Part shown: piece after piece, positions 2,708 to 39,184 of the stretch
How the letters are laid out: every line of letters starts with the position of its first letter
Position numbering within the stretch: the first letter of the stretch is position 1
Source of the DNA: a virus
Direction: 5' to 3' (one strand)
Virus genome (UHGV): UHGV-1367746
Length of the DNA: 39,184 bases
Notes under the pieces: generated by a model
Seen by the model: only the letters and a program-made list of their open reading frames with translations
Databases searched by the model: none
What the model was told of the DNA's origin: nothing
Program-made: the position numbers and the translations under genes

Positions 2708-3137
2708 AGAGTCCCTCCAGCATTAGGTCCCGGACAGAGATAGCCTCCTCTAAAGTAGGACGTGTTGTTCGCATATAGACATTCCCGCGTTTAACCTGAA
2801 TCCTATAACCATTCTGGTGACGGGTAACGCACTTCACTCCCGTCTTAGAGTCATAATGGCTACCCGTATTCCAAGTGTTCTCAGCGGCAGTAACGAGCCG
2901 TAAGTTACTTAAGGTATTATTGCTGGGGTTCCTGTCGATGTGATCTATTTGCATACCATGTGGTATAGGACCATTGGTTAGTTCCCATATCACGCGATGT
3001 GCCCGCTTACTGCCTAGACTTCGTGTCTGTACTATCCAATATCCCATCCGACTTAATGTCCCCACAGGCTTTCCAGTCCTAACGGAGACCAGACCGGATG
3101 GACTCGCCTGGTCCACTTTGTAGTAATCACTTAACAC
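2700..3137 (-). CDS. HNH homing endonuclease (free-standing)
   Basis: 145 aa; HNH motif region [41 protein letters not shown]; inserted between spanin and large terminase genes and overlapping both ends by a few nt. Confidence 0.85.
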
Positions 3138-3564
3138 CTTGGAGCCTCCTTATTGTGTCCTGAAGCGCCTTCTCCTTAAGGTCTGCCTCCTGAGTTATTC
3201 GGATAAGACTTTTAGAAGTTTCTGGGTGTAGTTCGACTCTACCATTAGGGAAGCATCGACTGACATCTGACTCGGTGAGACCTGAGGTGTTGACCTTGAC
3301 GCGCAGCCGCTTATTGTCAGACTTAAGGTCAGCAATAATCCTATCAGTGCTGCCTTCCAACGAGGACATTTCGTCCTGAAACCGTTTGGACACTTTGTTG
3401 ACTTCAGCTTGGACAGCAAGCCTTGTATCTTCCGATGCCTTAAGATTCGAGGTGTATTCTGCATTGACCTTAGCCTCCCACTTATTGTTAGCGGTGTGGT
3501 AGCCACCAGCAAACATCACTGCTGCAAGTAACCACGGAGCCGCTCTCTTTAAAAATTCGAGCAT
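3127..3564 (-). CDS. i-spanin (Rz-like, T7 gp18.5 homolog)
   Basis: 145 aa; N-terminal TM segment; similarity to T7 gp18.5 (MLEFL..., LEGSTDRII.DL.SDNKRLRV.V.T, ALQDTIR.LQ). Confidence 0.85.
   Translation of the reverse strand: MLEFLKRAAPWLLAAVMFAGGYHTANNKWEAKVNAEYTSNLKASEDTRLAVQAEVNKVSKRFQDEMSSLEGSTDRIIADLKSDNKRLRVKVNTSGLTESDVSRCFPNGRVELHPETSKSLIRITQEADLKEKALQDTIRRLQGVK
3195..3419 (-). CDS. o-spanin (Rz1-like lipoprotein) embedded in +1 frame of the Rz gene; start uncertain
   Basis: Embedded frame encodes hydrophobic signal plus lipobox LTISGC followed by short mature peptide; no ATG or GTG near the signal peptide, TTG at 3419 is one candidate (ORF track uses ATG at 3512). Confidence 0.4.
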   Translation of the reverse strand: MLSKLKSTKCPNGFRTKCPRWKAALIGLLLTLSLTISGCASRSTPQVSPSQMSVDASLMVESNYTQKLLKVLSE

Positions 3565-3627
3565 AGTTGCCCTCCCGGTTTATCAGATTTCACGTAGAGT
3601 CGCCTCCACTAGTTAGTGTTAACCATA

Positions 3628-3654
3628 AAGGCCACTACATATAGTAATGACCTT
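3628..3654 (-). promoter_or_regulatory. Conserved RNA hairpin (candidate RNase III processing site, R18.5-like) between small terminase and spanin genes
   Basis: Minus-strand RNA AAGGUCAUUAC-UAUAU-GUAGUGGCCUU forms an 11-bp stem with 2 G.U pairs; member of a 4-copy family with the same stem core. Confidence 0.5.
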
Positions 3655-3665
3655 GAGTCTAACAC

Positions 3666-3929
3666 TTATTGAACACCATACCCTGTGTCATTATCCTCAG
3701 TCGCTGAAAGCACCTTATCGTACTCTGCGTTCAGGGCCTCCATATCAGCCAGCGTCTTCTCGTCAACAGACACCTTGCTTAACACAAAGTTGTGACGAGC
3801 AAGCAGCTTCTCAATGGCGTTGTAGAGCTGAGGTGAACGCTTAGTGTCATCCCGCAAGTCTTGCAGCATGAGTCGAGCACGTTCAGTATCTAGCATTAAG
3901 AGGAACTTCTCTAAGTCCATCTGCGTCAT
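3666..3929 (-). CDS. Terminase small subunit (T7 gp18-like, DNA maturase A)
   Basis: 87 aa; similarity to T7 gp18 (LEMLDT, RSPQLYNAI.KLL.RH.F); synteny. Confidence 0.85.
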   Translation of the reverse strand: MTQMDLEKFLLMLDTERARLMLQDLRDDTKRSPQLYNAIEKLLARHNFVLSKVSVDEKTLADMEALNAEYDKVLSATEDNDTGYGVQ

Positions 3930-4162: not shown

Positions 4163-6163
4163 TTACCAGTAGTACCAATCACCTTTCCTACTTCTAATTA
4201 GAACAGAGCAATCGGCAACGGGTACTGTAGATACCCCACCAATCCTTATCTCATATAATTTACTGGGTAGTCTTTTCTTAGTTAGAGATGCTTTAAAATC
4301 TGTACCGGTTACAGTGATATATTCTGTCCCCTCCTCACTAGCTATCTGTAGGTCCAGACCACTGGGACTTGCTGGCAACTTAACATAAAGCTGCTGTTCT
4401 GCTGTACTACCGGCGAAATGACCGATAACGGTAGTTGTCCACTCACTCAAAGTCAGCCCTGAGCGCACAAAATCTACATTAAGGGGTTCCTTAATAAGTG
4501 CAGCAGGTGCGTTGTAATTATGCCCGTTAAGTACATAGTAGTTGCTGCTACCAACCTCTACTGTGTCTGCTGTGCAATAGGAGTGGAAGGTTCTTGAATT
4601 ATCAAAACGATAAAGACTTCTGATTAGCACACGCTCTTGATTACTTCTGGTTAAGATACCACAACCAGCAGATAGGTGAAGTGTAGAGATGGTAAGTGTA
4701 TGACTCTCGCTGTTAGCCTTAGACGACAATAATGATACCTTCGGCTCACCCACCTGAGTGAAGTCTTTACTGTTGCCCTCGCAGTACATAACCCCAATGT
4801 CCCACGCAGCAGGGTCCATTGTTACCACACCAGCACCAGATGTATTCTCAGAGCAAATCACACCAACACTAGTAGATAAACCACGACCTAAGATAATACC
4901 AGCACCTATCGTATATTTACTCGCATCATCTGTGATTGGGTCATAACCTAGTCCAGTAGACTTATCTGTACCCCATGCACTAATGTGAGGGAAGTGTGTA
5001 GCATTTACATAGGTATCCCCTTGCTCACCTTCCGTTGAATAACCTAATGCCACGCCCCTTGCACAGTTGTTTGCATGGAGAGTACCCATTTGAAAATACC
5101 AGCAAGCAAACATTACAATGCCATATCTATTAGCATTATATGCATAGATACTACCCATCTCGGATTCTGCACACATTAGTCGTGCGTAAAAACCATACGA
5201 TGCAATGTCTGCACAGTCTATGTTAAGACTGCCAATCAAACGTAGCCCTCGTACTTGGTTCTCAGTATTAGCTACATCAACGGTTTTGGTTCCAATAGGA
5301 AATTTACTAACACGAACAACAGATTTTAATGCAGGCCATGTTGGACCAATTGCTTTAATTGTTGCCCCATTTAGATTCCCACGTAGGTAAGAGGGGATAA
5401 CAACCTCATCTGTTACGTGGTAGGTAGCCTTGCCATCAAGGTTTAATGTGCCTGTAGCTATGGCCAATTTTATAGCAGGTAGACAGTCAAAGCTGGGGTC
5501 GTTCGGGATTGCCCCAAAGTTCTCAGGTGAGTGCTCATCAAGCCCATTCAGCTTACCTACGTTAGTCCAATTGGAATCAGGGGTTGAACCTGCAGGCACT
5601 GTTTTTGGGAGAGCACCATCCCAGCGGTAATAATAACCATCCTCTTCCCTTAGCAGGACCTCGTTCCATAGTGTAACGGTGAAGCCTTTCTCGAAGGAGC
5701 TACGGGTAATATAGCCAATTAGACCAGCCTCCCTGATACTCGAAACTATTCGTCGTGCTTCGTCCTCGCTATCCTTAGCGCTGCCAGCAGAGTTACCAGC
5801 AGCATCGGCATATTCCTTCGCTAAGTCAACAGTTTGGTCTCGCCCTTCTTCTGCAATATGGATAGCCTGAAGCTCCGAATTGGTCAGGTCACTAGCTGTC
5901 AACACTGAGCCATTCCTGAAGTCTACCACTAAGTCAGTTCCAGTCTGACGGTGAATACGAACGACGTCGAAACCTGATTGGTCAGCCAACATCTCAATCA
6001 TCGTTGGATTAAGGAATCGGTAATCTCGACCAACTTCTAGTACACGGTTCAGGGCAGGGTTAGAGCTATTCACCAGCGTAACAACAACAAACGTTCTGGC
6101 TAGGTAGTCGAACTCAATCCTGTACCGAGTGTTTCCTGAAGGGAATTGTGTAATCGTGGACAT
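4163..6163 (-). CDS. Tail fiber / tailspike (gp17): T7-like N-terminal adaptor domain with divergent C-terminal receptor-binding domain
   Basis: 666 aa; N-terminal about 150 aa matches T7 gp17 (F.YLAR.FVVVTL, DYRF, D.T.GS.L.A.DL); remainder lacks T7 shaft repeats and looks like a beta-helix tailspike (inference). Confidence 0.9.
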
Positions 6164-6232: not shown

Positions 6233-9200
6233 CCTTGATGTGGATGCCTTGCTCCTCAAACGTTCCAAGTAACAGCTTCTGGGTAATTGGGTCGTTCGGA
6301 ACCAGTTCACGGAACGTATTATACATCCCGGTCATGTAGTCACGCTCGTTGACGCGAGTATCAGCCTTGAGGTAGCCAGCCAAGTTGTAAGCCGAAGCGC
6401 CAACGTTAGCAGCATATCCGAAAGCTGGAACCTGCTCCAAGAAGTTACCAACAACATTCATAACAGGGTCACTTGTAGCCGCACCATACGCGATGGCACG
6501 TTCAGGCTTCTCTGTAGGCGAACGAGGTAGGATAGACGAACGGAGCATCTTAGTGTCCTCATACCCAGCGATGCCACCCAGAATGTTAGCTACCCCAAGT
6601 GGACCACCCAGATGTGAACTACGGGACAGAGCCGCATAACCAATCATCGTCGGGTCAAGAGCTTGCTTGAGGTATTCACGGTCTCTGCCATCCTGCATAG
6701 CGTAAGCCTTGACGTGAGCCTGAGCCATGTAGTAGATACCAGCCAGACCCATAGACATCACGGTAGATAGAGCAGCATCCATCGCTCGGTTGTTCTTCGT
6801 GGCGTTATAGAAGGTTCGCATGGTACGTCCATTGATGGACTTGATGACGAAGTTCTTAAACTGAAGGACAGTCTTAGCGAGAGGACCATAAGCCTTGGCA
6901 TCCATGTTTGACAGCTTGTGGGGCCGGAGTAACGTTTCGTCAGCGATGGTGTCACCCATACGCCACAGGTCCATAGCCCTTGGGTCCTGACTGAACGCCC
7001 TCTTATCCTTGATGGTGTACTTCCCGTCTGGACCACGAGTCACTGACTCACGGATTAATGACTTAATGCCCTTCCACTGCTCGTCAGATATACCAGCGGT
7101 CTTCAGCCAGCGGTCATCGAACTTACGCTTACTACCAGTCAGGCTATGCTCCACGATGTCAGACAGGAAGCCTTGACGTCCAGCATCTAACAGGTAGTTG
7201 GTCGTACCGTTGAGAACTTTAGTGAACGGAGAGCGTACTGCAAGTTCACCAGTGTAATACTTGGCAGTCCCCAGAGCTGTAGCTGTACCACGACCGAGGT
7301 CACTGTAAGACCGCAGACGGTCAATGACATCCTGTTTAGATGGGCGTATTGAGTCATCAAGTTCCTTACCAAAGATAACATTGTGCAGGTCCTTAATCTC
7401 TGAGGCCCCAACCTTCTTGTTACGGAAGGCTAGGTCACGGAAAATTGGGACTCCATGCAGCATTGCACGAACGTTACCACGGGCCAGCATACCACCAATC
7501 TCCGTTAAGTTCTGAACACCCATATAGGCATTCTTAGCGAAGAACGATAGGTCTGTCATTGTGCGCATCACGGTAGCGAAGGCTGCATCGTCAGCACCAT
7601 CACGTCGAGCACGACCAGTTAGAATCTTAAGTGTGTCACGCAAGGTAGATACTTCACCTTTCAACTTTCCGTCATCACCAGCCTTGTTCATCATGGTCTC
7701 AACCAAGTCCTTCATTTCTTTCGTTGTCTTGCCTGTACCAGCCATAATAGCAATGTCACCATTAACTCGACGGTTGTATGCCGGGACAATCTTGTCCATG
7801 TCCCACTCACGCAGGTTGTTGACACTGAAGGTTTGACCATTAGGAAGAACTATTGACATATCGCTGTCGAACAGGTTACGAGCCTCAAGGAAGCTGTTGT
7901 TCTCCAGACCCACCAGACCATTGATGTTCTCTTCCATTACGGATGAACGCTCGAACTGCTCGGTGTGAGAGATACCATAAGCCTTATCGTTGGCGTACTT
8001 ATCTACCGCAGCCGCAAGTCCTTCTGGAGTCAACGTAGGGTCAGCCTCTAAGAGTGCCTCGTCCACACGTTTCTTGACCTCAGGTCGAGACGCATAGCTG
8101 GTCAACCATGACTTCTTGATGGCCTCCTGTAGTGCCTCTGGACTTCCAAGTTCCTTGATGTACAGCTCCTTCATCTGGTTGCTATATACATGTGGGACGT
8201 AGGTTCCCTTGAATCGGCTACCCGGAAAGATAGACTGAGCGTCTGGACGACCAAACATCGCCGGGTTCTCCATCATCTCACGCTTGGCGTCAAACTGGTT
8301 CTTCAGCAGGTCATAGACTTTCAGTTCTCCCGGAGTCAGTTCAGCCTTCAGGTTCCCACTTCCGTCTTCAATAGCCATAGACACACGCTGGTAGATGTCC
8401 TGACGGAATGCGCCAGAGTCTCTCCAGAATGCTGTCTGGAAGTATGGGTCCTTGAGCGCCTCAGTAACCGCGTCGTCGATGTCGTTGTAGAACCGATGGT
8501 CCACAGCACGAAGTCTCTCGAATACGTCTGACGCAGTGGTCCCGATTTTACCTGAGGCCCCTGACTGCATACCGGTTGGTGAACGCACTAAGTCGGCAGC
8601 GACTCCACGAATCTCAGGGTTCTCAGACCGAAGCAGCTTCAGGCCAATCTCAGTTAGTCCACCAAGGTTCACACCAGCAGCTGCACGTTCAGGCTCAATC
8701 ACTTCGTCAAAGACCTTACGTGTCTTAGGGTTCAGAGGGTTCTCACCAATCAGTATTGAACCATCTTCAAGTCGTACACTACCCGGCTCATTCGGAACGT
8801 CAGCTAACTTAACGCCTTGATGACTAAAGGTCTCCTCACCTTCTTGAATAGGTAGACGAGACAGGTCCTGACCATCAACGTTACGGGCTGTCTCACGAGC
8901 TTCCAGACGTGTGGCTGGACCAGCGAACTCGTTAGTGTTACGACCTAAGGCTCTGCCTAAACCATCAGCGATAGCAGTCATACCTCCACCGAAGAGAGCA
9001 CCGCCAAGGATAGCCTCAGCCACATGAGCATCACCGCCAGCCACTGAGGTACGGGCCATCTCGGACACACCAGCCAGTGCTCCAGATTGAGCAGCCACGG
9101 TGAACATCTTGTTTACTAGCTTACCACCTTTACCAACCTGTCCAGCTATAGGAACGTAGGTCAGCGGGTCTACACCAGCACCAATCACACCAGCAGCTAA

Positions 9201-13457: not shown

Positions 13458-13486
13458 AAAGTCTCCTTATAACCTTAAGGGCCTAT

Positions 13487-13509
13487 AGTCCCTATAGTGA
13501 TAGTTAAGG
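13487..13509 (-). promoter_or_regulatory. Phage RNAP promoter (phi13-like), +1 at 13492
   Basis: Minus-strand CCTTAACTATCACTATAGGGACT; flanked by 12-bp inverted repeat aagggcctatag / ctataggccctt. Confidence 0.75.
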
Positions 13510-13533
13510 TAAATCTATAGGCCCTTCAATAAG

Positions 13534-15891
13534 TTAGACGGAACGAGCTTTCTTAGCGTATGACGCCTCCCAGCCACACCCAACGATTGACACTGGGGTA
13601 GGATAGTCGGACTCTAAGGTTAGACTCGTGGTTAATGCGTTACCATTCATAGCGAAGCGATACTGCCCGTCACCAATGTTTGTAGTCCCGATGGTTTGCT
13701 GACCAAGGGTGTACCCGTTGAAGGTATTCACGAACTCCCGCTCACCATTTCTGACAATGAGTCTCAGAGCGCCAGTGTCTTTGTAGTTGACCCAAGCCCG
13801 ACGAAGCTGTAGACGACCAGTGTCTTCCGACTGAGTGCCCCTATCATCTTCAATCTTAATCAGGAACCGTGAGAACTTGTAGGACATCAGATAGGGCCGT
13901 CCGATGAACACTGTGCGTCCTGACCAATCGCCGTTGAGGGTAACCACAGTAGAGATACTAGTCAAGTCCCCAAGGTCCACATAAGCACCCTGACTGTCAA
14001 TCAGATAGTACCGACCGGGAGACGGAGCGTTGCCACCATAAGCAGCACCAATGTCAACCGTAGTCTTATGTGTGTCAACGTTGTATGAGCCAATTGGTAT
14101 TACCATAGACACCTTGGAGTCAACGTGGAGTCTATACGGCTCTAATGGAAAGTCAGTTGCCTCCTTGATGAACTTAAGGTGCTCAAGGTCCACGCCGCCT
14201 TGGTGCTGACGAACAATGAACATGGTAGAGCCAATCGACGCAGACGCCAGAATCTTATCAGCTTTAGGGAACTCCCAGTGCGACCAAGAGGCTTGAAGCT
14301 GTATGCCGTCCTTAAACAAGAACTTGTAGAGGTAGATTCGGTTGTATGAACCTGTAGAGTTGACGCAGATGTAGTTCTCAGTCCCTGTTCCCTGAATGTC
14401 AAACACCCCGTTAGGGATATAGGACAGTACGTGACCAGTGGTATCATCGGCATCCTTCACGTCAGACACATCTGCTACAGCGAAGTATCGCTTAATGCTG
14501 GTGAATGACCCACGAGGTGCTGAGAAGAAGACTGAGCGTCCTACAGCGAACGGTCGGGCATTATCTCCTAAGGCAAACTCTGAGCCTACATCAAGCTGGA
14601 TAGACTTCGAGGTAAGGACCCCTGAGCTTGTCATCACGAACTGCACCTCATCTGACCAAAGTAGTAGCTGCTCGCTAAACGGAACGGCATACTTAAGGAT
14701 TGAGATTCTAGGGTGACTTACAGCTACGTCAATAGGATCATCATCACCTAATGTCGCCACACTCTTAGGGAAGAACGCAAAGTAGCTGGCTGAACGGCTC
14801 ATGATTACGTTCTCGCCTGACAAGAACCCCAGCCTATTCCTGTAGAAGAACACATCGTTAATTGTAGCATCCACGAAGCTAGGCATAGGGTTTGTGTCAT
14901 CATTACCAGCACCACGATTAGACCAGTCCAGAGTCTTGAACTCAAAGGAGCCATCAGGCTGTCTGACCAGAGCATGTGGCATTGTGGTGGCATCGAAACC
15001 AGTGACAACTCCCGGCTCCACTGTCTCCTTCCACGTCTTAGTGTTGGAGTCATACATCACGTAGTATTCATCGGCGCTACTGTTTGTCTCACCTTGAATC
15101 TTAATGATATACCCATTAGGAGCTGCAAGAGGTAGTTTAGAGATTGTCTGCACAGTGTCTAGGACTGGGCTTATTAGCTGGTTAGCGTAGCCATCCTCCG
15201 TCTCCACTGAGTTAATGTCAGTCCCTGAAGGAGCTGTGATTAGCAGGAATCCAGACCCAAGGTCGAACGTGAAGGTAGGGTAAGCAGCAACAAGAAGGTC
15301 TCTCAGAGCCGCACCGATAGCCTGAGCATCAACCTTAGGAGGGTCATTCTCGGCATCATTACCTGCTGGCAACTTATGCTCTACCTTAACGCCTCCATTT
15401 ATTCCTACCTTAAGGGTGCGACCATACTGTCCACCACGCAGGTTAATTAAAGCACGAGCTTTACGATTATAACCAGAGTGTGCCTTCTCGCTCCCACCTT
15501 TGACGACAACCTTACGGTTAACGACGAACGTATAGTCTGCCACGGTAACGACACGGATGTCATCTCGTGGGTTGGAGGACTTAACGTAATCTACCGCACC
15601 GGACACTGAGTATTGATTGCCACTCAAGTCAACTACCTGAATGTTGGACCCATTGAACACGATGTAATACTGCTCATGCTCGTCACGGTTAATCAGGTGG
15701 AACTTAGGGTTACTCCCAACGTCGATGTTAAGACGTCTCTTGAAGACTGTAGGTGGGCGCTTCTGGAGGCCATCACTCTCGGATGACCAGCAGTTAACCT
15801 GTGCCTCGCCTTGGTCTGAGAACCTCAGTATATCAGGCTGCTGGCTAATGCCACCTTTAAGGTTCTTGATTGATTGAGTAATTAGTGGCAT
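13534..15891 (-). CDS. Tail tubular protein B (gp12-like)
   Basis: 785 aa; strong similarity to T7 gp12 (SQSIKNLKGGISQQPDILR, GLQKRPP, HLINRDEHEQYY, RMVTVADYTF.VNR, LRRAWVNY, GCGWE). Confidence 0.95.
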   Translation of the reverse strand: MPLITQSIKNLKGGISQQPDILRFSDQGEAQVNCWSSESDGLQKRPPTVFKRRLNIDVGSNPKFHLINRDEHEQYYIVFNGSNIQVVDLSGNQYSVSGAVDYVKSSNPRDDIRVVTVADYTFVVNRKVVVKGGSEKAHSGYNRKARALINLRGGQYGRTLKVGINGGVKVEHKLPAGNDAENDPPKVDAQAIGAALRDLLVAAYPTFTFDLGSGFLLITAPSGTDINSVETEDGYANQLISPVLDTVQTISKLPLAAPNGYIIKIQGETNSSADEYYVMYDSNTKTWKETVEPGVVTGFDATTMPHALVRQPDGSFEFKTLDWSNRGAGNDDTNPMPSFVDATINDVFFYRNRLGFLSGENVIMSRSASYFAFFPKSVATLGDDDPIDVAVSHPRISILKYAVPFSEQLLLWSDEVQFVMTSSGVLTSKSIQLDVGSEFALGDNARPFAVGRSVFFSAPRGSFTSIKRYFAVADVSDVKDADDTTGHVLSYIPNGVFDIQGTGTENYICVNSTGSYNRIYLYKFLFKDGIQLQASWSHWEFPKADKILASASIGSTMFIVRQHQGGVDLEHLKFIKEATDFPLEPYRLHVDSKVSMVIPIGSYNVDTHKTTVDIGAAYGGNAPSPGRYYLIDSQGAYVDLGDLTSISTVVTLNGDWSGRTVFIGRPYLMSYKFSRFLIKIEDDRGTQSEDTGRLQLRRAWVNYKDTGALRLIVRNGEREFVNTFNGYTLGQQTIGTTNIGDGQYRFAMNGNALTTSLTLESDYPTPVSIVGCGWEASYAKKARSV

Positions 15892-18357: not shown

Positions 18358-18459
18358 ATGATAATTCTCCTATTCAATTGAAAGATAAAGTTTATTACTT
18401 ACTGTATGCCCAATCCGTATGGACTGAAGTAATAGGGGAACCTTGAGTCTATCTCTTGG

Positions 18460-18482
18460 TCTCCCTATAGTGATAGTTTAGT
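18460..18482 (-). promoter_or_regulatory. Phage RNAP promoter (phi10-like, capsid gene), +1 at 18465
   Basis: Minus-strand ACTAAACTATCACTATAGGGAGACCA; -7 to +8 identical to T7 phi10 (CACTATAGGGAGACCA); 5' leader can form a stem. Confidence 0.85.
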
Positions 18483-26336: not shown

Positions 26337-26354
26337 GGTTAATCCTCCGTTTAG

Positions 26355-26379
26355 TCTAATCATAAAGGCCACTCTATGT
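26355..26379 (-). promoter_or_regulatory. Conserved RNA hairpin (candidate RNase III site) upstream of DNA polymerase gene
   Basis: Minus RNA AAGGUCAUUC-ACAUA-GAGUGGCCUU, 10-bp stem; same stem core as hairpins at 3628, 33421, 37443. Confidence 0.5.
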
Positions 26380-26399
26380 GAATGACCTTGAGTTTAGAC

Positions 26400-26564
26400 C
26401 TATAAGTCTGTACGCAAGAAGTGATACATAAACTTACGGTTAGCTTTCTTCCATGCCTTAGAGTCGAACCTCTGGTCTCCCAGAATGTTGGACAGGCAGG
26501 TTGCTGCGTCGCTCCACCATTTGTACATGAACCGATGGTAGCGAGCTTTAAGTTTTCTTAGCAT
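26400..26564 (-). CDS. Small hypothetical protein (54 aa) between primase-helicase and DNA polymerase
   Basis: ATG at 26564 with CAGGAG RBS 6 nt upstream; the longer ORF-track form (to 26639) overlaps the gp4 3' end. Confidence 0.5.
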   Translation of the reverse strand: MLRKLKARYHRFMYKWWSDAATCLSNILGDQRFDSKAWKKANRKFMYHFLRTDL

Positions 26565-26617: not shown

Positions 26618-28602
<1,985 letters not shown>

Positions 28603-33381: not shown

Positions 33382-33420
33382 TTGTAGCTCCAGTTGTTTA
33401 GGTTATAGGGTTAATCATGA

Positions 33421-33445
33421 AGGCCACGACTTTAAGTCATGACCT
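33421..33445 (-). promoter_or_regulatory. Conserved RNA hairpin (candidate RNase III site, R1.1-like)
   Basis: Minus RNA AGGUCAUGAC-UUAAA-GUCGUGGCCU, 10-bp stem with 2 G.U; immediately downstream of the promoter at 33457. Confidence 0.5.
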
Positions 33446-33451
33446 TGAGTC

Positions 33452-33474
33452 TAATCCTATAGTGATAGTTTAGG
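33452..33474 (-). promoter_or_regulatory. Phage RNAP promoter (phi1.1-like), +1 at 33457
   Basis: Minus-strand CCTAAACTATCACTATAGGATTA. Confidence 0.75.
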
Positions 33475-34020: not shown

Positions 34021-36702
34021 TTAAGCGAATGCAAAGTCTGAAGACAAGATGTCCTCGATATTCAGTTTACCTTTCTTCGGAAGCTCAGGCAACTTGTCGC
34101 GCTGGCTCTCGTGAAGCTGGTATTCAAACTGCTCGTAGAAGTCAAGCAGCACATCGTTGTCGCGGTAAGTCTCTACCATCGTCTCACGGACGCCACGGAA
34201 CAGATACTCAGCGTCAGCCGGGATGGTCCCGAAGCTATCGTGAATCACTGCGAATGACATCACGCCATACTTGCGGTGAGTGTGGACTACAGTCTTTCGG
34301 AGGTGGCTACCATCTTGTGAGTGGACGAAGTTCGGGCTAATGCCTGACTCCTGCTTGTGCTTGTCCAGCTCTTTCTTCGTGCCTTTGTTGACTGTAGGCT
34401 GAAGGTTGAATGACCCTAAGAACATCAGGTTCAGACGAGTGGTATCCTTCTTGCGGTATTCCTGCCATACCGGGAACCCATCAGGTGTGACCCAGTGTAC
34501 CGGAAGACAAGGCTTCAGGATTTCTCCAGTCTTCTTGTCCTTCACCTCAGCAGCCAGCAGCTTGGCAGCACCTTGAAGCCACTTCATCGCGTCAACCGCA
34601 GCAACTACTGTCACACTCACAGCTTCCCAAATCATCTTAGCCATGAAGCGAGACGCTTGGCTTGGTTCAGTGAACATAGCGCCAGACCCTGAGTCAATCG
34701 CTGGCATCACGATGTCCTCGTATACTTGGTCTGCGAAGCCGTACTCTTTCGACCCGTAGGCCAGAGTCATGACCGAACGCTTAGTGACCTTGCGTGACAT
34801 ACCGTAGGTCAGCCACTGACGGGCCAGCTCTCGTGTCCCCAGCTTGAGACGCTCGGTAATCTCACCAGTTTTCTTGTCCTCGTGAGTTGCCATCTCGTTG
34901 TCCGTACCGTTAACCAGCAGGACTTTGAGTTCCTCCTCAATGCGGTCAGACACAATGCGATAGATGTCTTGGACCTTACCGGATGGCGTTAGGTTTACTG
35001 CATGCCCACCGATGTGGTCACGAAGCATCGCGCTGAAGTGCTGAATCCCAGAGCAGGACCCATCGAAAGCTATCGGCAGCGAGCAGGAGTAAGACAAACC
35101 GTGGTGCATTACGCCAGCATACTCGAAGCAGAACGCTAGGAAGCAGAACGGAGAGTCTAACTTACCCCACCACTCAATGCTGTCCATCGGTGCCTTAGCG
35201 GTAGCCATGATGTTGTCGTGGTTATCTTCCACCCACTTGATGCGCTCCTCGAAGGTTACTTTATCAATACCCGCACAGTTTGCACCGTGGACCTTCAGCC
35301 ATTTGAAACCATCAGCACCAATAGGCTTACCGACTGCCAGAGTCAGGAGACCCTTTTGCATGTCGTTACCCTGAGGGTTGAACATCGGCACAGCGTAGAC
35401 GCGACCGCGCCAGTCCATGTTGTACGGAAACCAGATGGCCTTGAACTGAGAGAACTTGTTCGCTTGGTTAACGATAAAGCTCAGTGACAATCTACGTGAC
35501 TGCCGGGCCTTCTCTCGGCGGTAGATACCAGCAGCAGCCTTCTTCCATGCCTTGAGTTCCTCTTCAGTCTCACCCGCATAGTCTTCAGGCTTCAGTGGCT
35601 CCATCTGAGGGATGTCATCAATAGGTGTGTTGTTCAACTTCTCGACCATGTTCACCACGTCCAGCACCTTCTTGTTCACTTTCCAAGGTGTATTCTGGAT
35701 GATATTCACAGCGTCATAGACTTCAGGCATGTATACGTCTTCATAACGTGCCACCGCTGACTTAGACCCTAAGCGAATCAGGGGCAGCGGTCTGCGACCT
35801 TTGGCCCAGTACCCACCGCCTACGACACCAGTCCACGGCTTAGGTGGAACGACGCAAGGCTGGTAGACTGGAGCGATACCCGCAAGGCTGAATCCTCGTT
35901 GTGCCATCTTCTTGACCCAGCAGTCTGACAGGTGGACCATCTCTACGTCAGCCGCTGCATTGCCAGCACCGTACCGCTTAAGCTCGACCAGTTGTGTTGA
36001 CTGGATGACAATCTCAAGCATCTTGATGCCAACGTGGACAGCCTCTGTAGGACTCCAAGTCCCCCACGCATCTTCCAGTTGGCCTTGCTCCAGCATGGAT
36101 GCCTCGACCGCTTGCATGTAGGCTTTCTTGTAGGACGCCCCGGCCCGCTTATTCAGGTTATCAGCTATCGCCTTCTTGAAGTGCTCTTTCTCCTTGTCAC
36201 GGATGCGGCCGAAGCGGATTTCGTCCTCAAGTGTGCGACCTATCGCGGAGGCCATCGGTGTAATCGGTATCCCTTCAGGCTTGACCAGCTTGGAGAGTAT
36301 GACCTTCAGTATGATAACCGCAGCAGACTCACATGAGATGCGCAGAGAGCGGTCCTTGACGGCCTTCTCTTCAGTGCTCAACATGGTGAACGCCACGCTA
36401 GGACGAGAGGTTGACAGCTTCCCGTCTGGCCCTTCATGCCACTCCCTTACGGCTTGCGCAATCTTAGGGACCAGAGTCTGCATCAAAGGCTTGGCGACCT
36501 GATTGTCTGCCAGTTCCCCGCGCTCAGTCTGGCGCTCAAGGTTCTTGATGAAACGTCGCTCGCCTTCAGTGTATGCCTCGTGCTCAAGCTGAAGCTGTTT
36601 GACTGCAAGGTCTTGCCCGTAGTGGTCAGCCAGCAGGTTAAACGGCTCAATGGCGTTCGACACATCAGAGAAGTCGTGTTTTTCAATAGAGATGACGCTC
36701 AT
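34021..36702 (-). CDS. Single-subunit DNA-directed RNA polymerase (T7 RNAP-like, gene 1)
   Basis: 893 aa; extensive identity to T7 RNAP (DFSD, PFN.LADHYG, IWFPYNMDWRGRVYAV.MFNPQGNDM.KGLLTLA.GKPIG, WLK.HGANCAG.DKV.F.ERIK..E.NH.NIMA, DSPFCFLAFCFEYAGV.HHGLSY.CSLP.AFDGSCSGIQHFSAMLRD, RSVMTLAYGSKE.GF, HDSFGT, C-terminal FAFA). Confidence 0.98.
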   Translation of the reverse strand: MSVISIEKHDFSDVSNAIEPFNLLADHYGQDLAVKQLQLEHEAYTEGERRFIKNLERQTERGELADNQVAKPLMQTLVPKIAQAVREWHEGPDGKLSTSRPSVAFTMLSTEEKAVKDRSLRISCESAAVIILKVILSKLVKPEGIPITPMASAIGRTLEDEIRFGRIRDKEKEHFKKAIADNLNKRAGASYKKAYMQAVEASMLEQGQLEDAWGTWSPTEAVHVGIKMLEIVIQSTQLVELKRYGAGNAAADVEMVHLSDCWVKKMAQRGFSLAGIAPVYQPCVVPPKPWTGVVGGGYWAKGRRPLPLIRLGSKSAVARYEDVYMPEVYDAVNIIQNTPWKVNKKVLDVVNMVEKLNNTPIDDIPQMEPLKPEDYAGETEEELKAWKKAAAGIYRREKARQSRRLSLSFIVNQANKFSQFKAIWFPYNMDWRGRVYAVPMFNPQGNDMQKGLLTLAVGKPIGADGFKWLKVHGANCAGIDKVTFEERIKWVEDNHDNIMATAKAPMDSIEWWGKLDSPFCFLAFCFEYAGVMHHGLSYSCSLPIAFDGSCSGIQHFSAMLRDHIGGHAVNLTPSGKVQDIYRIVSDRIEEELKVLLVNGTDNEMATHEDKKTGEITERLKLGTRELARQWLTYGMSRKVTKRSVMTLAYGSKEYGFADQVYEDIVMPAIDSGSGAMFTEPSQASRFMAKMIWEAVSVTVVAAVDAMKWLQGAAKLLAAEVKDKKTGEILKPCLPVHWVTPDGFPVWQEYRKKDTTRLNLMFLGSFNLQPTVNKGTKKELDKHKQESGISPNFVHSQDGSHLRKTVVHTHRKYGVMSFAVIHDSFGTIPADAEYLFRGVRETMVETYRDNDVLLDFYEQFEYQLHESQRDKLPELPKKGKLNIEDILSSDFAFA

Positions 36703-36771
36703 ACTTAAAGTCCTTGTTATTAGTCTTTCACTTAAAGTCTCTTTGGTCTTTCACTTGGAGTCTTAGACCTT

Positions 36772-36794
36772 GAGTCCTATAGTGATAGTTAAGT
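36772..36794 (-). promoter_or_regulatory. Phage RNAP promoter located directly upstream of the RNAP gene, +1 at 36777
   Basis: Minus-strand ACTTAACTATCACTATAGGACTC, 75 nt upstream of gene 1 ATG; full match to family core CACTATAGG. Confidence 0.65.
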
Positions 36795-36799
36795 CATAA

Positions 36800-37126
36800 T
36801 TACTTGCATATCAGAGGGTTAGCGTGAAGATGACTGAAGTCACCGTGAGTCGTGTGCTTGATGGTTGACCGTTGGTCTATCGCCTTCCAGCCTGAGACCA
36901 GAAGTTTACCATCGTCGGTGATTGGTCGTCCACCATACGCCAGACACATCAGCTCGGACTTATGGCCCTCTGCCCTGAGTCGTGCCTGTAGTACACGGTC
37001 CCGCTCCTGCTGTTGACGTGCGGTGTGACTTGACGTTCCGTGACGATACCCGGTAGCCAGTAGGCTTAACATGTTCATTTCTGCGTCCATAGAGCGTACC
37101 AAATTAATCCCGTATGACTTGTTCAT
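36800..37126 (-). CDS. Hypothetical early protein (ORFan)
   Basis: 108 aa ORF between ocr and RNAP; start ATG abuts stop of upstream ORF; no recognised homolog (T7 has 0.7 kinase here, which is absent). Confidence 0.6.
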   Translation of the reverse strand: MNKSYGINLVRSMDAEMNMLSLLATGYRHGTSSHTARQQQERDRVLQARLRAEGHKSELMCLAYGGRPITDDGKLLVSGWKAIDQRSTIKHTTHGDFSHLHANPLICK

Positions 37127-37323
37127 TACAGTTTGCTCCCAAGAGTTGCTATATCCCAGACGTTCGCTAAGTTACGCGCGAATCGCCCATTAGGTTGGCG
37201 TACAGTCCAGCGGCCCAGACGTGCATAGTTGAATTTATAGACTTTACGTGCCTTGTTGATGTCTCTCATCAGCATGTAGGCGATAAGTCCATAGCCTATG
37301 GCTATCAATAGTTCGATACTCAT
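37126..37323 (-). CDS. Hypothetical small membrane protein (early ORFan)
   Basis: 65 aa; N-terminal hydrophobic helix IELLIAIGYGLIAYMLM followed by basic region. Confidence 0.55.
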   Translation of the reverse strand: MSIELLIAIGYGLIAYMLMRDINKARKVYKFNYARLGRWTVRQPNGRFARNLANVWDIATLGSKL

Positions 37324-37442
37324 AGTGATTTCCGTTTAATACAATCGTATATCCCATAACCTATCATCCAGATAACTGGCGCTAGGCATACCAAATATCC
37401 CACACTCATAGTTAACCCCTATCAATGTAAGTGATAATCTTT

Positions 37443-37468
37443 GAGGCCACCTATCAGTCGATGACCTC
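37443..37468 (-). promoter_or_regulatory. Conserved RNA hairpin (candidate RNase III site) in early region
   Basis: Minus RNA GAGGUCAUC-GACUGAUA-GGUGGCCUC, 9-bp stem with 2 G.U pairs; same stem core as other family members. Confidence 0.45.
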
Positions 37469-37611
37469 TCGTTTATCACTCAGTATCCACCTGTCAGCGT
37501 TATGGTCAAGCTATGGTGATTAGCCACGTAGCAAGCCCCGCGCTTCATCATCTCGTAGCACCCATCGTAGAACGCCTGTTCACTGCTATAAGTTATCTGG
37601 TACATTTCTGC

Positions 37612-37845
37612 TTACCCTTGGAATCCTACAGTGTTAGGCCACAGCGTAACGGTCCTACGCTTGGAGGTGATAAGGTCGGTAAATGATATCCGATATGCTG
37701 TGCCCTCAGGTGCTAGTATGTTGCCCTCATAGACCGCTTTCAGGTGGCGCATAGTCGCATCGTGGTTTAACTGCCCGGTCTTGACCATAAGCCGGGCGTT
37801 GGTGACGTGGTGCTGGCAGAGACCATAAGTCACTATCACTCGCAA
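37612..37845 (-). CDS. Hypothetical early protein (ORFan)
   Basis: 77 aa ORF immediately after ocr; start may be internal (overlaps ocr 3' end by 10 nt). Confidence 0.5.
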   Translation of the reverse strand: MRVIVTYGLCQHHVTNARLMVKTGQLNHDATMRHLKAVYEGNILAPEGTAYRISFTDLITSKRRTVTLWPNTVGFQG

Positions 37846-38180
37846 TCCTCCTCGTCTGCCTCTTCATCCTCAAACCAGACCACATCCGAGCTATTAGACA
37901 CGTCGTTATAAAGCGCCTCATAGATGCGGGCTTGCAGTATACGCGTTACATCCTTGGTTTCAGGCATCAGCCCAGAGTCCTCAAACTCGTGGTCTATACC
38001 ATCAGCAGCCATTACCGTGAAAATCTCGTGGTAATAGTGCGGAACCATATAGTCTACGACTTCATGCAGCGCATCGTAATAATCATCGCCTTCAGCTATT
38101 TCGTCGTACTGAATACGCTCATTGAACAGCTCAACGGTTGCAGCCAGCAGGTCATAGTATGCGTTAGCGTTACGTTCCAT
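37836..38180 (-). CDS. ocr: Ocr-like DNA-mimic anti-restriction protein (gp0.3)
   Basis: 114 aa, highly acidic; similarity to T7 Ocr (N.R.QYDEI...DD..DA.HE..D..VPHYY..IF.VMA..GID.EFEDSGLMP.TKDV.RILQARIYE, acidic C-terminus); first early gene position. Confidence 0.9.
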   Translation of the reverse strand: MERNANAYYDLLAATVELFNERIQYDEIAEGDDYYDALHEVVDYMVPHYYHEIFTVMAADGIDHEFEDSGLMPETKDVTRILQARIYEALYNDVSNSSDVVWFEDEEADEEDCE

Positions 38181-38261
38181 ATTTATATCCTCTCAAAGTT
38201 AATTGTGTGTATGTTAGTGACTATCAATCAGGCCGCTATGAGTCTAACGACCTGTAGTTAA

Positions 38262-38438
38262 TCACTGGCAATTGAACGCATGGTTCAGGCACTTATTGAA
38301 CGCGTCCTGCGCTTGCTCACGGCTATCCCACTCAGTCTTAGACAATCCGTAGATTATCACATGCTTAGTGCGATACTTATAGTCGTTAGCCGTATACCAG
38401 ATTACGCCCAGTTCTTCGTTCATCGCTATGATTTTCAT
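38262..38438 (-). CDS. Small hypothetical early protein (58 aa)
   Basis: ATG at 38438 to TGA at 38262-38264; preceded by the same leader element (hairpin plus TTGATAGTCACTAAC) that precedes ocr; not in ORF track (below 60 aa). Confidence 0.35.
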   Translation of the reverse strand: MKIIAMNEELGVIWYTANDYKYRTKHVIIYGLSKTEWDSREQAQDAFNKCLNHAFNCQ

Positions 38439-38619
38439 AATGTTACCCTATTTAAGTTAGTGACTATCAGTCAAGGCCTTCAGATGTAGACTCAAAGACC
38501 CTGTAGTTAGTCGCTATCGGCGCACATTAAGAGTTTATCCAGATTGTTAAAGAGCATTCGCGTTGGCTGTCGTCGCCGTGCTATCCCGTTTCAGTGTTGG
38601 GACTCACTGTCGTTTCGAT

Positions 38620-38656
38620 GTGGTACAGCTTACAGCTTTTAAAGGAGGCTGTCAAC
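38620..38656 (-). promoter_or_regulatory. Candidate host sigma70 early promoter (T7 A3-like)
   Basis: Minus strand TTGACA-N17-TAAGCT then GTACCACATCGAAACGACAGTGAGTC, which closely resembles my recollection of the T7 A3 promoter start region. Confidence 0.5.
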
Positions 38657-38766
38657 CTGTTATTCTTTTATGCGGTGAGTGACCGAATTCGACTCACAGC
38701 TGGTGCCTTATCCTTGGCTGGTCTCGGGCAGGTTTCTCGGTTCCTATCCCTACGCCATCTTGCTAC

Positions 38767-38804
38767 GTGGTACATACTACTTTAAGTCGGTACAGCTTGT
38801 CAAC
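38767..38804 (-). promoter_or_regulatory. Candidate host sigma70 early promoter (T7 A2-like)
   Basis: Minus strand TTGACA-N18-TAGTAT followed by GTACCACGTAGC; shares downstream motif with promoter at 38620. Confidence 0.45.
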
Positions 38805-39080: not shown

Positions 39081-39184
39081 GTGTCTTATGGTTGTGACTT
39101 ATGGTTGTGACTTATGGTTGTGACTTATGGTTGTGACTTATGGTTGTGACTTATGGTTGTGACTTATGGTTGTGACTTATGGTT
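39081..39184. repeat. Tandem array of 13-mer gtgacttatggtt (7 perfect copies plus 1 variant gtgtcttatggtt) at window end (terminal repeat region)
   Basis: Direct reading 39081-39184; same unit as positions 1-52, so both genome ends carry the array. Confidence 0.9.

Follow-up and report, generated by a model that had tools for sequence, protein, structure and literature searches.

Do the repeated hairpins found at gene junctions on the minus strand of a T7-like phage genome act as processing signals for the host enzyme RNase III, how many of them are there, and how do they compare with the sites known from T7 and T3? By BLAST, the window analysed here (the entire 39,184-nt stretch of DNA) represents all or nearly all of the genome of a K1F-like phage (Kayfunavirus, Studiervirinae, T7 group); identities to many Escherichia and Salmonella phages are ~93-98%, and the genes of the window are all carried on the minus strand. 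The original prediction, made from the letters of the window, described a family of four such hairpins as candidate RNase III sites.

That RNase III signals split the mRNAs of T7 and T3 between genes has been textbook knowledge since the 1970s. T7 transcripts are processed by the enzyme at ten sites (PMC6938266), five of which lie within the early precursor (PMC4858673). Where a site has an internal loop, cutting is limited to a single phosphodiester on one strand, and the resulting 3' ends carry protective hairpins (PMC1540722, PMC3867540), whilst proximal and distal boxes within the helix are positive determinants of recognition by RNase III.

At the ends of the window, a 13-bp unit (GTGACTTATGGTT) is found in tandem, four times at positions 1-52 and eight times at 39081-39184. 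The arrays are identical at both ends, which suggests that the genome was opened within the array beside a terminal repeat or concatemer junction.

A family of six hairpins

The exact pattern AGGTCAT-N5-20-GTGGCCT is present four times in the window, always on the minus strand (3629-3653, 26366-26388, 33421-33445 and 37444-37467), whereas 100 dinucleotide-preserving shuffles yield 0.00 on average. The four minus-strand copies with an AGGUCAU/GUGGCCU core that were first reported are thus real, although only three had been placed correctly (3628-3654 and 37443-37468 being the core plus one extra closing pair each); the second had been put at 26355-26379, about 10 nt away from its true core. The core pairs as A-U, G-C, G-C, U.G, C-G, A-U and U.G, with two G.U pairs per copy as described, and these pairs are the same as those of T7 R1.1. 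The compensating distal pairs (UAC/GUA, UC/GA, GAC/GUC) can likewise be read directly in the sequence. Relaxing the pattern to AGGTC-N5-25-GGCCT adds a fifth intergenic copy at 38230-38253, together with one match within the RNA polymerase ORF (34758-34790) that was set aside and has no match to the covariance model described below.

When ~15 nt of flanking sequence is included on each side, the hairpin is seen to be the upper stem of a larger structure, in which an asymmetric internal loop separates it from a lower stem of 7-10 bp. All six sites recognised here (Table 1) adopt this bipartite ~50-60 nt architecture in their minimum-free-energy folds, each with a small terminal loop, and fold z-scores calculated with the flanks run from -4.7 to -5.9 for the four exact copies, with -4.8 for the copy at 38230 and -3.1 for 38455-38517. 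The structure belongs to the sense strand, as had been proposed: sense folds of -19.9 to -25.3 kcal/mol compare with -11.6 to -18.1 kcal/mol for the antisense, the latter being weaker by 3-12 kcal/mol.

When aligned by MAFFT with seven sites from T7 (R0.3, R0.5, R1, R1.1, R1.3, R4.7 and R18.5), the six from the window give the consensus AGTGnTAnACTCAAGGTCATT...AGTGGCCTTnATGATTAnCACT, on which RNAalifold places 9 + 10 pairs with loop strands of 4 nt and 6 nt between them; compensatory changes are seen in 12 of these 19. From this alignment we made a covariance model (called R1 by us, and referred to below as the model, to keep it apart from the T7 site of that name), which was run unfiltered. 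In the window it picks out exactly six sites, each on the minus strand and scoring 40.7-63.8 bits (T7 sites score 39-66 bits), and its next-best match is the antisense of the first site (15.1 bits, against 63.8 bits in the sense direction). The family is therefore larger than the four members first listed: 38212-38268 had been overlooked and 38455-38517 is a divergent full member. A segment of the latter (38476-38501) had been described as a related motif beside a promoter; it does belong to the family, but no phage promoter adjoins it.

The model also recovers T7 R6.5, which was outside the seed, at 47 bits. Neither of two T7 GenBank records carries annotated RNase III features, so the T3 record was taken as an independent benchmark. 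T3 RefSeq NC_003298 has ten stem-loops annotated as 'RNase III recognition site', and the model recovers eight of these to within a few nucleotides, with zero other T3 matches. The two that it misses (R3.8 and R13) are both short hairpins that overlap promoters. A search of Rfam with the whole window, on both strands, gave no match at E<=1, and Rfam appears to have no family for these sites of T7-group phages.

The sites and their surroundings

Table 1. Predicted RNase III-type signals in the window, with two non-canonical candidates of lower confidence; cuts are predictions made by homology with T7 sites, and ^ marks the bond
Feature	Position	Strand	Stem or core	Model score (bits)	Fold	Predicted cut
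R18.5-position signal, predicted	3611-3668	minus	upper stem 3628-3654	63.8 (E=1.2e-11)	-23.4 kcal/mol, z=-5.5	single, between 3625 and 3624, GGCCUUUAU^GGU
R4.7-position signal, predicted	26348-26403	minus	core 26366-26388	63.4	z=-4.7	26362/26361, GGCCUUUAU^GAU, 25 nt ahead of ATG 26336
R1.1-position signal, predicted	33403-33460	minus	core 33421-33445	60.3	z=-5.1	33417/33416, GGCCUUCAU^GAU
Early-region, R0.5-like signal, predicted	37426-37482	minus	core 37444-37467	56.2	-25.5 kcal/mol, z=-5.9	37440/37439, GGCCUCAAA^GAU
R0.3-position signal, predicted	38212-38268	minus	core AGGUCGU...GCGGCCU, 38230-38253	53.8	z=-4.8	38226/38225, GGCCUGAUU^GAU
Divergent signal, predicted	38455-38517	minus	upper stem GGGUCUUU.../...GAAGGCCU	40.7 (E=1.8e-6)	z=-3.1	near 38469/38468, GGCCUUGACU^GAU
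R3.8-like non-canonical candidate, lower confidence	28349-28375	minus	hairpin AGGGAUGGGAC-CAUGA-GUCCUGUCCCU			
R13-like non-canonical candidate, lower confidence	13477-13526	minus	12-bp stem AAGGGCCUAUAG/CUAUAGGCCCUU			

The expectation that the hairpins would occupy the positions of T7 RNase III sites holds up well, with synteny to R18.5, R4.7, R1.1, R0.3 and the early region. The R18.5-type site lies between ORFs for the small terminase subunit (3666-3929) and an Rz-like spanin (3127-3564), both assigned with PHROGs, and the gene 18 stop codon is where its lower stem begins. The 81-nt stretch around it is 100% identical in K1F and is matched in 702 phage records. The R4.7-type site lies between the ORFs for the primase/helicase and the DNA polymerase (PHROGs), directly upstream of the latter. 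At the R1.1-type site, which precedes the gene 1.1/1.2 pair, a phage promoter (33456-33470) overlaps the lower stem, its start region coinciding in part with the stem's 5' strand; downstream are found an ORF for a 59-aa protein and then the dGTPase inhibitor of gene 1.2 (PHROGs).

The remaining three sites are in the early region. The closest T7 or T3 site to 37426-37482, by identity, is T7 R0.5, and a sigma-70-like promoter match (37482-37509, minus strand; TTGACC, 16 nt, GATACT) lies directly upstream of it. Past the predicted cut of this site, at a distance of 30 nt, there is a 29-aa hydrophobic ORF (MSVGYLVCLAPVIWMIGYGIYDCIKRKSL; 37320-37409, minus strand), for which no PHROG match was found. 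An ORF for an ocr-like anti-restriction protein (37836-38180; PHROGs E=5.5e-53) is located downstream of 38212-38268. The divergent site, whose loop is larger, is the first of the early transcript; it is kept in K1F (707-769) and other relatives, and has sigma-70-like early promoters upstream and a conserved 58-aa ORF downstream.

Two strong sigma-70-like promoters can be seen within 38620-38803 (minus strand), upstream of this first processing site: one at 38774-38803 (TTGACA, 18 nt, TAGTAT) and a second near 38625-38655 (TTGACA...TAAGCT). From their sequences, these are probably early promoters of the A type. The gp0.7 kinase stimulates RNase III during T7 infection. No ORF of the size of this kinase (359 aa in T7) is found in the early region of the window (36800-38438, minus strand), where the largest ORFs encode 114 aa (the ocr-like protein) and 108 aa, and an RNase III-stimulating kinase thus appears to be absent from it.

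Conservation and covariation in relatives

Relatives were gathered via their RNA polymerase, terminase and DNA polymerase proteins. The model finds 214 matches in 80 RNA polymerase loci (58-99% identity), 23 in 80 large terminase subunit loci (none in loci at <=60% identity) and 81 in 75 DNA polymerase loci (none in loci at 37-39% identity), and all 318 of these matches are on the coding strand. A search of IMG/VR with the pattern CAAGGTC-N8-18-GGCCTTT returned mostly chance matches in unrelated viruses, and the first 100 loci were kept as a negative control: despite possessing the 14-nt core pattern, 97 of the 100 fail the model, and the three that match it are T7-like genomes of ~40 kb.

In an alignment of 114 distinct sequences, which was fitted to the model and to that extent favours its structure, 92.6% of pair cells hold standard pairs, a share that falls to 27-46% if the partners are shifted by 1-3 columns. 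Double-change cells number 367, compared with 126 after shuffling, and the observed number is attained by 0 of 500 shuffles. The MAFFT/RNAalifold analysis and the folds of orthologues agree with this, and both helices are supported by covariation. Folding and the search of relatives, both of which had been put forward as checks on the four hairpins, thus come out in their favour, and a lack of conservation can be dismissed.

Individual sites tell the same story. Among BLAST-collected orthologues of the R18.5-type site, GGUC/GGCC is replaced by the compensatory GGUU/AGCC. Orthologues of the R4.7-type site are found ~12 nt before the DNA polymerase start in Kayfunavirus loci, and compensatory changes at this site include A-U to G-C replacements and, for example, GGUCAUUC/GAGUGGCC to GGUCGUUAC/AUAGCGGCC. 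The R1.1-type site has orthologues in 55 related loci identified by BLAST (39 distinct sequences), with the same fold in all, whilst orthologues of 37426-37482 display double compensatory changes (for example, GGUCAUC/GGUGGCC to GGCCACUAC/GUAGUGGUC). The records of K1F and EcoDS1, which serve as references for Kayfunavirus, list promoters but have no RNase III sites annotated.

Half-motifs, promoters and non-canonical candidates

Two further stretches, 18432-18450 and 36760-36775, had been described as related motifs beside promoters. Both lie downstream of phage promoters but comprise only the 5' half of the motif (ACUCAAGG), neither is matched by the model, and they are not counted as members of the family. 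The first forms the loop of a 5' leader hairpin (GGGAGACC...GGUUCCCC) in the transcript from the gene 10 promoter. The initial hairpin of this transcript (18432-18468, minus strand) resembles the T7 phi10 leader and the R3.8 hairpin, and a second hairpin follows at ~18402-18425. The other stretch, 36760-36775, is the start of the transcript from the phage promoter upstream of gene 1; its fold is weak (z=-2.9) and is not kept in a second Kayfunavirus subgroup.

The promoter in question is a perfect phage promoter (AACTATCACTATAGG; 36776-36790, minus strand) lying directly upstream of the RNA polymerase gene; after the promoter come the orphan half-motif ACUCAAGGUC and repeats of AAGACU/GACUUUAAG (region 36703-36790). 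This arrangement is kept in Kayfunavirus relatives and the promoter is listed as 'phi' in the EcoDS1 annotation. As read from the sequence, the arrangement implies that a promoter has taken the place of the R1 site of T7 and T3, and that gene 1 would be transcribed by its own product.

Two non-canonical candidates deserve mention. The R3.8-like hairpin at 28349-28375 begins within a phage promoter (28373-28387), just before the primase/helicase gene, and is homologous in both position and sequence to R3.8 of T7 and the annotated R3.8 of T3, with which it has the tail CCCTTTGTTCGCATT in common. It has no match to the model, and T3 R3.8 is likewise unmatched. The stem of the R13-like candidate at 13477-13526 encloses a phage promoter (13491-13505); aligned to R13 of T7 and T3 it shows a loose similarity, and the model does not match it.

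A proposed role in processing and its rivals

We regard the hairpins as signals of the T7-group type for processing by host RNase III, and would put the probability of this at about 0.9. The column-by-column alignment with T7 sites, the recovery of annotated T3 sites and the synteny all favour the reading originally proposed; homology in sequence and structure, strand specificity, conservation and covariation are all observed, and cleavage by RNase III is what they predict. The sites would be transcribed within long polycistronic minus-strand mRNAs, by host RNA polymerase early in infection and by the phage polymerase for the middle and late genes. Each ~56-nt site folds into a lower stem that varies (7-10 bp) and an upper stem of 9-12 bp, with an asymmetric internal loop between them; in the upper stem, the first seven pairs (AGGUCAU/GUGGCCU, with two G.U wobbles) are nearly fixed whilst the distal pairs and loop vary freely. 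By homology with T7 R1.1, an RNase III dimer would bind the coaxial helix and, because the internal loop breaks the duplex, would cut one strand only, at the bond four nucleotides beyond GGCCU on the loop's 3' side (...CCUUUAU^GAU...). The GAU that would follow the cut is conserved in the window sites, with GGU in its place in the R18.5-type site. The upstream mRNA would then end in the upper-stem hairpin, shielded from 3' exonucleases, and the downstream mRNA would acquire a defined 5' end 25-60 nt before its start codon; the exact bond, and any effects on mRNA stability and translation, are expectations by analogy. The recognition boxes of RNase III are probably represented by the nearly fixed core. 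With the box positions placed as we infer them, the sites at 3629 and 26366 have a U.G pair with a U-A pair after it, and those at 33421 and 37444 do not.

Could the hairpins instead be mainly terminators, pause signals or stabilisers of mRNA that are not themselves cut? They are stable, contain G+C pairs, precede a U-rich stretch (UUUAUGAUU) and lie at gene junctions, which favours such a reading. None of the six is terminator-like in a scan, however, and there are too few U residues in their tails: UUAUGGUU, UUAUGAUU, UCAUGAUU and CAAAGAUU do not make the combination of G+C hairpin and U-run. Essential genes would be silenced by termination just ahead of the DNA polymerase or Rz gene, as no promoter follows there; covariation extends to the lower stem and internal loop, which have no role in termination; and the homologous T7 sites are known sites of cleavage. 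We therefore consider this explanation very unlikely. Still less credible is the notion that the repeats function as DNA, as protein-binding palindromes or joints for recombination and module exchange, with the RNA fold being incidental. It would account for ~56-nt repeats at module boundaries. The paralogues within the window also resemble one another as closely as they do their positional orthologues from T7 and T3, and recombination between copies could be the cause. The two conserved G.U pairs, however, are A.C mismatches on the opposite strand, where folding is weaker by the margin given above, every match in relatives is on the coding strand, and the compensatory changes (G-C to G-U among them) preserve pairing in RNA in a way that has no meaning for duplex DNA.

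Another factor (RNase E or G, a phage protein or a translational repressor) might recognise the hairpins in place of RNase III. Conservation of the core does exceed what double-stranded RNA alone would need, columns 16-17 (A-U, G-C) being invariant in the 114 sequences, but the distal and proximal boxes, as positive determinants for RNase III, account for this conservation. The hairpins end 25-60 nt upstream of start codons and leave ribosome-binding sites uncovered, which also counts against this reading. Since the same core is a standard RNase III substrate, there is no need for a different factor, and we think its involvement highly improbable. Processing by RNase III accordingly remains our preferred explanation for all six sites.

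Evolution of the copies and significance

The R18.5-type site of the window is 81% identical to the R4.7-type site of the same genome. Its closest counterparts in T7 and T3 are the two R0.5 sites (78-79%), and the R18.5 sites of T7 and T3 are both outside its six best matches. Such likeness between paralogues hints either at strong shared constraint or at concerted evolution (homogenisation). One could imagine that the copies, which are often joined to promoters, have been homogenised by recombination between paralogues, or that they serve as joints for the exchange of modules between Studiervirinae genomes. This would explain why the R18.5-type site resembles the R4.7-type site of the same genome more than it does R18.5 of T7 or T3, and also the orphan half-motif after the gene 1 promoter, but on balance we consider it improbable.

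The hairpins are a well-known and ordinary kind of element that happens to be unannotated in the K1F and EcoDS1 records, and they open no new biological question. Their main value lies in annotation, with the six sites and two candidates defining the predicted processed mRNA units of a Kayfunavirus. The set is both reduced and rearranged (R1, R1.3, R6.5 and the gp0.7 kinase are lacking, whilst an additional early site and a phage promoter before gene 1 are present) and may as such interest those who model or re-engineer T7-like gene expression. T7 is able to grow without RNase III (PMC6938266), and the contribution of the sites to fitness is therefore probably modest.

Comparison with T7, T3 and perfect duplexes

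The window hairpins have in common with T7 RNase III sites the consensus ACUCAAGGUC...GGCCUUUAUGAUU and, as judged by alignment and model scores, carry the T7-site consensus CAAGGUC...GGCCUUUAUGAU. The T7 signals R0.3, R0.5, R1, R1.1, R1.3, R4.7, R6.5 and R18.5 have the same architecture of two stems and an internal loop and are on the same strand. The loose pattern matches T7 at 1442-1464, 3115-3134, 5862-5883, 6422-6444 and 13868-13888, and these matches end 4 nt before RNase III cuts that we take to be those of R0.5, R1, R1.1, R1.3 and R4.7. The T7 cut coordinates used for placing the scissile bonds are those that Dunn and Studier reportedly gave in 1983; T7 RNA folded around these positions adopts the same architecture as the window sites. 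From R1.1 RNA, cleavage releases 47+13 nt products as well as an upper stem-loop of 28 nt (PMC3839596). By count, the 28-nt product is CAAGG...CCUUUAU, which fits a cut after ...CCUUUAU.

The intercistronic positions of T7 R18.5, R1.1, R0.3 and R0.5 are all matched by window sites, and T7 R1.1 is 79% identical to the site upstream of the DNA polymerase gene. There are differences, however. T7 has eight canonical sites and the window six: the model finds none before gene 1 (R1), the ligase gene (R1.3) or gene 6.5. Gene 4.7 is absent, so that the R4.7-type site adjoins gene 5. Upstream of the R0.3-type site there is one more early site (38455-38517), and no ORF of gp0.7 kinase size that could stimulate RNase III is present. 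With R1, R1.3, R6.5 and such an ORF all missing, processing may be organised differently from that in T7.

T3 provides close parallels. T3 R4.7 is found directly before gene 5, as is 26348-26403 in the window, and T3 R18.5 overlaps the end of gene 18, as does 3611-3668. In T3 the E. coli 'B' promoter abuts R0.5, just as the sigma-70-like match abuts 37426-37482. The T3 R13 stem-loop overlaps the promoter phi13, and the candidate at 13477-13526 likewise overlaps a promoter; for R3.8 and R13 the window has only loosely similar candidates. Canonical R1, R1.3 and R6.5 sites are present in T3 but absent from the window.

The same enzyme also cuts perfect duplexes, such as the stems of the 30S rRNA precursor and synthetic R1.1[WC] variants, cleaving both strands with a 2-nt stagger. 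Perfect duplexes and phage sites alike need about two helical turns and appropriate proximal and distal box content. In the phage sites, unlike the perfect duplexes, the internal loop is expected to limit the cut to one strand, leaving a hairpin at the 3' end.
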